A DNA stretch of 30,777 nucleotides from contig JBHLMI010000027.1 of NCBI GenBank assembly GCA_048938295.1, forward strand, positions 4,650 to 35,426. The letters are read 5' to 3'. The DNA is from Promethearchaeota archaeon. GTDB taxonomy: Archaea; Asgardarchaeota; Hermodarchaeia; Hermodarchaeales; Hermodarchaeaceae. The stretch's first letter is position 1, and every line of letters starts with the position of its first letter. Of the stretch, positions 14,382 through 22,841 are shown one piece after another. The notes under the pieces are model-generated. The model had not been told where the DNA came from. It saw only the letters and a program-made list of their open reading frames with translations, and ran no database searches. A program made the translations under genes and the position numbers.

Positions 14382-14732
14382 GTGGACGATGAACCCCGAC
14401 GGTCGTCAACCCTCCCTGAAGCCGTACTCACAGCCAGGTCTCAGACCCGGATCTCGGAAGCATCTACAGTACAGGCTTACGCTGCTCCCTCCCGGGCCTA
14501 GCTGGTTTCACCCGATAAAGACGATTCAGCCCTTCCTACGAAAAGCCTACCGCCACCAGCGATCCTCCGAGGCGGATCATCACAGCCTTAAACAGTGAGT
14601 CGTACAACAGGTCAGAAAGCCTAACATCGGCATTCAGCCCGCCGTATAGAGCGTTTGCGGTGCAGGGGAGCCTTAGCCAGCCCGTAGCGGTGCTGCCGGG
14701 CTTCTAGCCCCCCGCCTAGGCTCACCGTCCAC
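14382..14732 (-). ncRNA. ffs: SRP (7S) RNA with a putative 31-nt BHB-type intron (14703-14673)
   Basis: Helix 1 GTGGACGGTGAGCC/GGTTCATCGTCCAC; helix 6 with a GTAG tetraloop; helix 8 CTAGGCCC-GGGA-GGGAGCAGC. Length 351 nt, or 320 nt after removing the insertion. Confidence 0.93.
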
Positions 14733-15897: not shown

Positions 15898-16006
15898 TGG
15901 TGGGCCGAGAGGGACTCGAACCCTCGACCATCGCGGTGTAAGCGCGATATCATAGCCCTCTAGTCTAAGAGAATATCCTCCTCTCAGATAGCTAGACTAT
16001 CGGCCC
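15898..16006 (-). tRNA. tRNA-Val(TAC) with a 32-nt D-loop BHB intron (15989-15958, 17/18)
   Basis: Spliced GGGCCGATAGTCTAGCT/GGCTATGATATCGCGCTTACACCGCGA...CCCACCA. BHB: CTAG/CTAG helix, bulges CTA and AGG, intron stem TCTGAGAG/CTCTTAGA. Confidence 0.93.
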
Positions 16007-21411: not shown

Positions 21412-22705
21412 TCACAATTCATCGAAAGTGTGGATGCGCATTTTCGCCGGTTTCTTTACAATGTTGCCAACTCGCACCCCAATAATTAATTCGACGCCAC
21501 GATCTTCGGCAATATCAATGAGGCGTTGTGTGATAACGCCATCTAAGATAAGCACTTTAGCTTTATCGAGTTCTTGCAAATCGTTAGCCAGTTCACCCAC
21601 GTGGGTTTCCTTTAACTGTTTAAACTTCTCATCTATGATGACTGCCATCATCGTCTGTTGAATCTTTTGAGCAGAATCAAGCACCGGCTTTGGGATTCCC
21701 AAATCCTTCATCTTTGGCTCTGGTTTTCTTTCAGCTGTCATTCGTGTGCTAGAGGCAGTACGCGTGGGTGTTCGCCGCTGTTTCTTTGCCTTCTCAGGAG
21801 TTCGACGTGTACGTTTCTTCTCCTTCGGTTTCGCTTTTACTGGTGCTTTTCCTAATACCTGCTCTGCTGGAATCTTATTACGTAGGGCTTTAGTAATCTC
21901 TTTGTGAGTGAGCTCCTCTACTTCTCTACCAGTAGGTGCTCTAGCCACATAATCAACCTTGATGGTCTGTGCAAGTTCTTTTAGAATTAAATCTCCACCG
22001 CGATCACCATCGAGAAATGCAATCACACTTTTATCCTTGGCAATGTCAGCGATAGATTTAGGAATCGATGTCCCCTCAACTGCAACAGCATTCTTGACAC
22101 CAGATCTCAACAGGGCTAAGACATCCGCTCGGCCCTCTACAATGATAATGATCTTTGATGTCTCTACCTCTGGTCCCGCAGGAAGTCTTTCTTTACCAAA
22201 TTTGATAATCTCTGCAGTTCTTGCCTGTTGAAGAACCGTATCTGTCATTTCCTGAGAATCCGGAGAGATTTCCCCTTCCCAGTCCCGTAGCAAATCTACT
22301 GCACGATTCACAATTTGTTGCCGCTTTTCTTCGCGGACATCCTCGAGTTTTTCAAGGGTTATTTTAGCTGCACAGGGGCCAACTCTGTCCACTGTTTCCA
22401 TCGCGGCTGCAAGGATTGCTGTTTCAGTCCGATCTAGACTACAGGGGATAGTGATGGTGCCCTTTGATTTTCCACTCTCAGTGTGAAGCTCGACTTTTAT
22501 TCGACCAATCCGCCCCGATTGTTGTAATTCTCTTAGATCTAAATCTTCACCGATTACCCCTTCACATCGCTGATATGAAGTGTAGGCCCTCTGTTTGACC
22601 GAAGAGAGCACCTACGACATCGGGGGTCTCAACTACTCCATCTATCTCGATTTTACCATGAATACAATACTTCGTAGTACCAGTACCTTCTGCATTTGCT
22701 CCCAT
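21412..22705 (-). CDS. dnaG: Archaeal DnaG (exosome-associated, TOPRIM), interrupted by a 28-nt BHB intron. Exons 22705-22582 and 22553-21412; 421 aa spliced
   Basis: Exon 1 reads [16 protein letters not shown]...[17 protein letters not shown]. Exon 2 continues (L)[18 protein letters not shown]...IVEGRADV...FLDGDRGG...APTGREVE. The ORF track sees only exon 2. Confidence 0.93.
22554..22581 (-). other. BHB intron in dnaG mRNA
   Basis: GCCT-AC|A-CTTCATATC-AGC-GATGTGAAG-GGGT-AA|T: 4-bp helix, two 3-nt bulges and a 9-bp intron stem; contains an in-frame TGA. Confidence 0.88.
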
Positions 22706-22841
22706 AATCGTCACCTTGTGAAATGATTTATGATATGTCAGTGTGGGCGTGTGATATTGAGAACGCCACTTTGAAGTGATGTGTGATGATGCTTAGGTAA
22801 TTTGGTAATTGTGATACAGCTAGCCTCATGAATGAGCCACA

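Follow-up and report, generated by a model that had tools for sequence, protein, structure and literature searches.

Crenarchaeota of the Desulfurococcales and Sulfolobales have an intron in the cbf5 pre-mRNA that interrupts the catalytic Asp codon and has been shown by experiment to be spliced (PMC2738675; Watanabe 2002; Yokobori 2009). According to a 2020 paper, crenarchaeal cbf5 was the sole archaeal coding sequence reported to need splicing by the endonuclease (PMC7714728). In Haloferax volcanii, the HVO_1309 transcript carries a BHB intron in its 5' UTR, and this canonical BHB is cleaved in vitro by a homodimeric enzyme (PMC7714728). Non-canonical introns are also found in the tRNA genes of Asgard archaea and Thermoproteales, and introns in protein genes appear in neither of the two papers that describe them (PMC11291895; bioRxiv 10.64898/2026.10.13.758758).

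Here we describe a 28-nt insert in the dnaG gene of an Asgard archaeon, a member of the Hermodarchaeota, located in a window of 30,777 nucleotides (the whole stretch of DNA that we analysed). We propose that this insert, at 22581-22554, is an endonuclease-type HBh' intron in the dnaG pre-mRNA, and we give this reading a probability of about 0.88: from the structure, conservation, reading frame and enzyme genes that we observed, we infer that cleavage and ligation take place in vivo. Like the crenarchaeal cbf5 intron, the dnaG intron is short, contains no ORF, sits in a conserved coding motif and is specific to a lineage. The crenarchaeal cbf5 introns are mostly unconventional BHB motifs that need a hetero-oligomeric endonuclease, and the same would apply to dnaG. 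The two differ in host gene and in lineage, dnaG being an Asgard case, and the evidence for dnaG is comparative. Like HVO_1309, dnaG would be a case in which the splicing endonuclease acts on an mRNA and not on tRNA or rRNA, whereas the HVO_1309 intron lies in a UTR and leaves the reading frame unbroken. With the non-canonical tRNA introns of Asgard archaea and Thermoproteales, the dnaG intron shares its size range, the hBHBh' and HBh' classes, the (alpha-beta)2 context and a pattern of repeated gains, although those introns break tRNA genes.

A more distant parallel is found in eukaryotes. In HAC1/XBP1 splicing, which is regulated by stress, IRE1 cuts two stem-loops in the mRNA and a tRNA ligase (RtcB in animals) joins the ends. 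The route proposed for dnaG likewise combines a protein endonuclease with a tRNA-type ligase and changes the reading frame; unlike HAC1/XBP1, its nuclease would be the tRNA splicing endonuclease and not IRE1, and we saw no sign of regulation for dnaG. The mechanism is already known in kind, and what is new is the host gene, dnaG, and the Asgard lineage. Full-text searches of the literature turned up neither an intron in dnaG nor one in any Asgard mRNA, in agreement with a preliminary description of this DNA, which knew of no report of an intron in dnaG.

The interrupted dnaG gene and its predicted RNA fold

The dnaG gene is read from the minus strand of the window and consists of the following parts.

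22711 to 22715, minus strand: Shine-Dalgarno-like GGTGA, 5 nt 5' of the dnaG ATG, read directly from the sequence
22582 to 22705, minus strand: dnaG exon 1, 41 complete codons and base one of the Leu codon that spans the junction; NF003108 positions 1-30
22554 to 22581, minus strand: 28-nt BHB-type (HBh') intron with an in-frame TGA; 28, 29 or 31 nt in relatives
21412 to 22553, minus strand: dnaG exon 2, two junction-codon bases, 379 codons and the stop; NF003108 positions 32-419; Toprim domains

Starting from the ATG at 22705, the 41 codons of exon 1 end in FGQTEGL, with CTA as the last codon. If unspliced, this frame runs on into HFISAM and then reaches the TGA within the insert, so that the product from ATG 22705 would be 47 aa; the listing of ORFs gives the same frame as a 50-aa ORF that begins at a GTG three codons 5' of the ATG. 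The GGTGA supports ATG 22705 as the start of exon 1. The frame of exon 2 extends from 22551 to the stop at 21412. We found that joining the two exons rebuilds a Leu codon, CUC, from the C at 22582 and the UC at 22553-22552, and restores the motif FGQTEGLLGE, which is uninterrupted in other Asgard DnaG genes. Comparison with the NCBIfam DnaG equivalog NF003108 gave the same picture: exon 1 matches profile positions 1-30, exon 2 matches positions 32-419 (456.7 bits), and the one profile position missing between the two matches is the Leu codon rebuilt across the junction. Removal of 28 nt in any register would keep the frame, but only the register dictated by the BHB rule yields the conserved second Leu; as read off the sequence, shifting the register back by one base puts Ile there, and shifting it forward by one puts His.

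The proposed fold is made up of the elements below.

22584 to 22587, minus strand: 5' strand of central helix H, GCCU, exon sequence, pairs with 22556-22559
22581 to 22583, minus strand: 5' bulge ACA, cut between 22582 and 22581; invariant among the Hermodarchaeaceae relatives (family f1)
22560 to 22580, minus strand: inner helix h', a 9-bp stem with loop AGC, stacks on the central helix
22556 to 22559, minus strand: 3' strand of central helix H, GGGU, intron sequence; G.U changed to G-C in 6 relatives
22553 to 22555, minus strand: 3' bulge AAU, with the cut between 22554 and 22553; relatives have AAU or AUU

All four positions of the central helix GCCU/GGGU are paired, two of them as G.U, one at each end. 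The 5' bulge ACA has base pairs on either side, and the 3' bulge AAU has a single G-C pair on its outer side. The protein sequence demands cuts directly behind the second base in each bulge, which is where the BHB rule places them. The preliminary description had reported both the broken frame (a 41-codon N-terminus, a 28-nt insert with an in-frame TGA and a 47-aa product) and the fold (the GCCT/GGGT helix, bulges ACA and AAT, and the 9-bp stem), and we found its coordinates and bases to be correct throughout. Its further claim, that cutting after the second nucleotide of each bulge rebuilds the DnaG motif, is borne out by the contiguous profile match and by nine intron-less Asgard homologues, which share the motif and carry FGQTEGLLG(E/D/R)(E/D)LDLRELQ without a break.

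Marck and Grosjean divide BHB introns into the classes hBHBh', HBh' and hBH. The outer exon-exon helix h of the dnaG motif is 1 bp, against 9 bp for h', and the motif therefore belongs to the relaxed HBh' class. With so short an outer helix, the bulge at the 3' cut is not closed. RNAalifold favours a 2x2 loop with two outer pairs over a closed 3' bulge. For the single sequence, the BHB fold is the centroid yet not the minimum-energy structure, and its fold energy is unremarkable (z = -1.6); the case for a dnaG intron therefore rests on its relatives.

Rfam returned no match to an intron family in the window. As observations apart from dnaG, the window holds a match to archaeal SRP RNA at 14387-14727 on the minus strand (341 nt against a model of 317 positions) and a weak tRNA match at 15901-15958, also on the minus strand (32 bits over 58 nt), which ARAGORN missed. 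The latter may be a tRNA gene broken by introns.

Conservation of the insert among relatives

We found dnaG in 14/14 genomes of the same genus and in 3/4 genomes of a second genus, and the insert occupied the identical site in all 17. Members of the first genus have 28 nt here, those of the second have 29 or 31 nt, and none of these lengths is divisible by 3; changes in length are restricted to the tip of the hairpin, and the loop varies freely. Since the sequences are kin, the following pairing statistics express consistency and not a probability: over 16 distinct relatives, 96.6% of cells were paired (100% in the central helix and 95% in the hairpin), pairing fell to 42-55% in a control in which the partner was slid by 1-3 columns, and 1 of 500 shuffles matched the observed pairing. 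One-sided changes in the central helix preserved pairing, with 16/16 relatives paired at all four pairs. A structure kept in this way at one and the same site does not arise by coincidence. Changes on both sides were seen at three pairs of the hairpin (C-G to U-A, A-U to G-C, and U-A to A-U). The preliminary description had pointed to the presence of the insert in relatives, together with compensatory changes in its stem, as a way to check its proposal, and both were found.

The coding sequence around the insert is conserved as well. The exon half of helix H is frozen at synonymous sites, where the 18 genes with the intron all read GG(C/U) CUA; relatives without it encode the Gly and Leu by other synonymous codons, and the codons adjoining the frozen stretch vary. 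In comparisons with relatives, dN/dS of the spliced frame is 0.05-0.10 and pS reaches 0.77; for exon 1 alone, pN is 0.02-0.04 and pS reaches 0.47.

These data bear on several other explanations of the broken frame. The window comes from a metagenome-assembled genome in 66 contigs (2.52 Mb, 91.6% complete), and dnaG could in principle be a decaying pseudogene or the insert an artefact of assembly. The dN/dS of 0.05-0.10 in the spliced frame excludes a pseudogene, and the genome has one dnaG; the preliminary description had held that a second, intact dnaG or an artefact exposed by raw reads would speak against splicing, and no second intact copy was found in this 91.6% complete genome. An assembly artefact is excluded by the insert's presence in 17 independently assembled relatives together with contigs from three runs, in which the insert is covered with neither an indel nor the joined form; these were DNA contigs only, and one or two of the three runs may be the source of the window DNA. 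We consider both explanations effectively refuted.

Alternatively, dnaG might be expressed unspliced, as a truncated DnaG from an internal start, with the 47-aa product of exon 1 being either a separate peptide or nothing. A suitable ORF of 399 aa, which holds the Toprim core, does begin at GTG 22611. Exon 1, however, supplies the first 30 positions of the DnaG profile and has its own GGTGA and ATG, and it is under purifying selection in a frame that splicing alone would join to exon 2. Truncation also leaves unexplained the exact BHB geometry and the frozen exon half of helix H. We therefore judge expression by this route to be unlikely; truncated DnaG from GTG 22611 may be made as a side product.

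It is also conceivable that ribosomes cross the insert, either by a programmed frameshift or by a bypass of the kind known from T4 gene 60, given that a stable hairpin and then a stop codon follow soon after the break point in dnaG. The gene, however, offers no take-off and landing codons that match, since it is only the joining of C to UC that creates the second Leu codon. Inserts of 28, 29 and 31 nt would demand different shifts in different species, a frameshift would add about 9 residues to the most conserved DnaG motif, and elements of the same shape break three other genes of this genome (see below). Translation across the insert thus appears very unlikely, and removal of the insert from the pre-mRNA is the reading that we prefer.

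Splicing enzymes and the proposed route

We found that the genome encodes two EndA paralogues. The first, at G000 C1:9137-9697, gives a gap-free alignment with the catalytic alpha subunit of Aeropyrum pernix (3P1Z_B; 2e-45). Its catalytic Tyr/His/Lys are intact, and Lys stands opposite both K44 and R46 of A. pernix; the loop that holds K44 lets the enzyme accept a wide range of substrates, helix-less motifs among them (PMC3241643). The other paralogue, at G000 C19:2886-3476, has diverged further and resembles structural beta subunits. RtcB is also encoded (567 bits). With these genes present, the host is predicted to possess an active alpha/beta endonuclease of crenarchaeal type, and an active RtcB.

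We propose that the dnaG transcript would fold such that exon GCCU pairs with intron GGGU, flanked by two 3-nt bulges and, on one side, by the 9-bp intron hairpin. In each bulge, the (alpha-beta)2 splicing endonuclease would cut behind the second base; RtcB would ligate the exons. The spliced mRNA would then encode a 421-aa DnaG with the universal FGQTEGLLGE motif, and the unspliced one would give just the 47-aa peptide from the dnaG start codon. The earlier proposal that dnaG expression depends on the tRNA splicing endonuclease and a ligase, which did not mention the 1-bp outer helix, thus gains strong comparative support and a host that encodes the enzymes; splicing itself is what we infer from them.

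The dnaG motif lacks an outer helix, its cleavage by EndA is a prediction from sequence, and one may ask whether the insert leaves the RNA by a route other than EndA and RtcB, through a different nuclease and ligase or as a small ribozyme. A group I or group II self-splicing intron was rejected on size, the insert being 28 nt, far below a ribozyme core of several hundred nt. Moreover, in dnaG and in all the other cases that were checked, the BHB rule places the cuts precisely where the protein sequence needs them, and the alpha EndA keeps the loop lysine that permits cleavage of helix-less motifs (PMC3241643). A route of this kind therefore seems highly improbable compared with splicing by the endonuclease and RtcB.

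Predicted introns at a second dnaG site and in other genes

To place the dnaG intron among the Asgard archaea, we used an intact Asgard DnaG as query against 201 Asgard genomes. Most matches read through the motif in one frame, the exceptions being family f1 and certain genomes of families f3, f7 and f9; many matches to intact Asgard dnaG genes carried a "stops inside" flag, which probably reflects the terminal stop codon, as confirmed for one. In f3, f7 and f9, the break lies at a second site, where an insert of 29-34 nt separates FGQ from TEG, between the Gln codon and the next codon and 16 nt upstream of the Hermodarchaeota site. The genes concerned are as follows.

Family f3: second-site dnaG introns in genomes G020 and G031
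Family f7: second-site dnaG introns in genomes G024, G034 and G086
Family f9: second-site dnaG intron in genome G134
Loci of these introns: L027, L029, L030, L184, L185 and L186

A script tried every BHB-rule excision at these inserts. Each insert was found to have a helix, bulges AAN and AAN, and an inner hairpin, and its removal restores the motif. The central helix is mostly paired at 4/4 positions (3/4 in G024 and G034), and within f7 GGCC/GGCA is replaced by GGUC/GACC, a double change included. At both sites, the exon strand is formed by the Gly GGC codon and the bases that follow it. Counting both sites, BHB-rule excision restored the conserved motif in 9 sequences from 4 families. From the sequences we conclude that at least four Asgard families have predicted endonuclease-type introns in dnaG, distributed over two sites close to each other. 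The DnaG tree leaves the families in a polytomy, which neither forces nor excludes one origin; the two sites may reflect one gain followed by a slide, or several gains.

We also asked whether other genes of the same genome are interrupted, using two scans. In the first, which is free of any motif, the ORFs of an intron-less relative (a complete 1.42-Mb genome) were compared with this genome and adjacent, frame-switching matches were collected. After removal of artefacts, two genes were left, dnaG and cbf5. Among the rejected candidates, C20 was 23S rRNA and the C2 insert an in-frame domain. The flavin-reductase-like candidate C4:9338-9346 (plus strand) had no structured insert and looks like a 1-nt frameshift or a sequencing error. 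The "inserts" in C35:4523-4662 (just upstream of the window start) and in C17 were runs of N with duplicated flanks, that in C35 being a scaffolding gap. The second scan searched for BHB structures that would fuse two ORFs and gave 6054 raw candidates, a set that was useless without further filters; it missed the cbf5 intron because the h' of that intron is just 1 bp. Filtering for long inner stems and A-rich bulges left three matches only: dnaG, a CoA-transferase gene and a gene for a Rab-like GTPase. The introns found outside dnaG are listed here.

G000 C9:3456-3495 (L190:957-996), plus strand: 40-nt intron in cbf5, between INLD and KPPGPTSHE
G000 C22:36428-36459 (L216), minus strand: 32-nt intron in a CoA-transferase (GctA-like) gene, between EHDLD and ILVGA
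G000 C44:22827-22856 (L233), minus strand: 30-nt in-frame intron with a TAA, in switch I of a Rab-like small GTPase

In each of the three genes, the Pfam matches of the exon pair adjoin: Ras 1-29 and 32-158 for the GTPase, CoA_trans 3-46 and 78-216 for the CoA-transferase, and DKCLD followed by TruB_N for cbf5. The cbf5 intron conforms to the BHB rule, with helix CUGG/CCAG and bulges AUA and AAA, and lies about 30 codons upstream of the crenarchaeal cbf5 intron site. It was present in 13/13 genomes of the same genus in which the region was found, where variants of the helix keep pairing, and was absent from the second genus (G015) and from G019. At the CoA-transferase site, we found unrelated BHB-rule introns of 34 nt and 35 nt in G004 and G011 (L222, L226), and the site is unbroken in six other genomes of the genus, including the nearest relative, G001. 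The Rab-like GTPase intron is common to G003 and G012 and absent from 12 other genomes of the genus. As judged from the sequences, the CoA-transferase and Rab-like GTPase introns are presence/absence polymorphisms within the genus.

The preliminary description had further suggested that, as in cbf5, an intron in dnaG would couple RNA metabolism to splicing. The CoA-transferase and the Rab-like GTPase are unrelated to RNA metabolism, which argues against such functional coupling; the suggestion is weakened, and the function of the host gene looks incidental.

Two further observations concern cbf5 in other genomes. In G024 (family f7), cbf5 has a 29-nt BHB-rule intron (L211:1485-1513, plus strand) between the first and second bases of the catalytic Asp codon (GTL-D-PKV), and this position is the crenarchaeal site given in PMC2738675. 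In G010 and G006 (L214, L215), the open frame that holds cbf5 is 836 aa long and has an in-frame addition of about 1.6 kb in mid-gene, which may be an intein.

If spliced as proposed, dnaG would join cbf5 as the second family of archaeal protein genes to depend on RNA splicing. An intron fixed in an essential, single-copy gene would make the tRNA-splicing machinery part of the ordinary expression of protein genes in this Asgard lineage. Gene callers would wrongly take dnaG of the intron-bearing lineage for a pseudogene or a truncated gene. Together with the presence and absence of the sister introns within one genus, the two dnaG sites offer a natural system for the study of intron gain and loss. 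More tentatively, and at somewhat less than even odds in our estimation, endonuclease-spliced micro-introns may still be colonising the protein-coding genes of Asgard archaea, above all in this Hermodarchaeota genus. This suggestion derives from the two sites in dnaG, the two in cbf5 (one of them the crenarchaeal site), the polymorphic introns of the CoA-transferase and Rab-like GTPase genes, and the three unrelated introns of the CoA-transferase gene. If it is true, mRNA splicing by the tRNA machinery would be a recurrent feature of several genes in the closest prokaryotic relatives of eukaryotes, and not the curiosity of a single gene.
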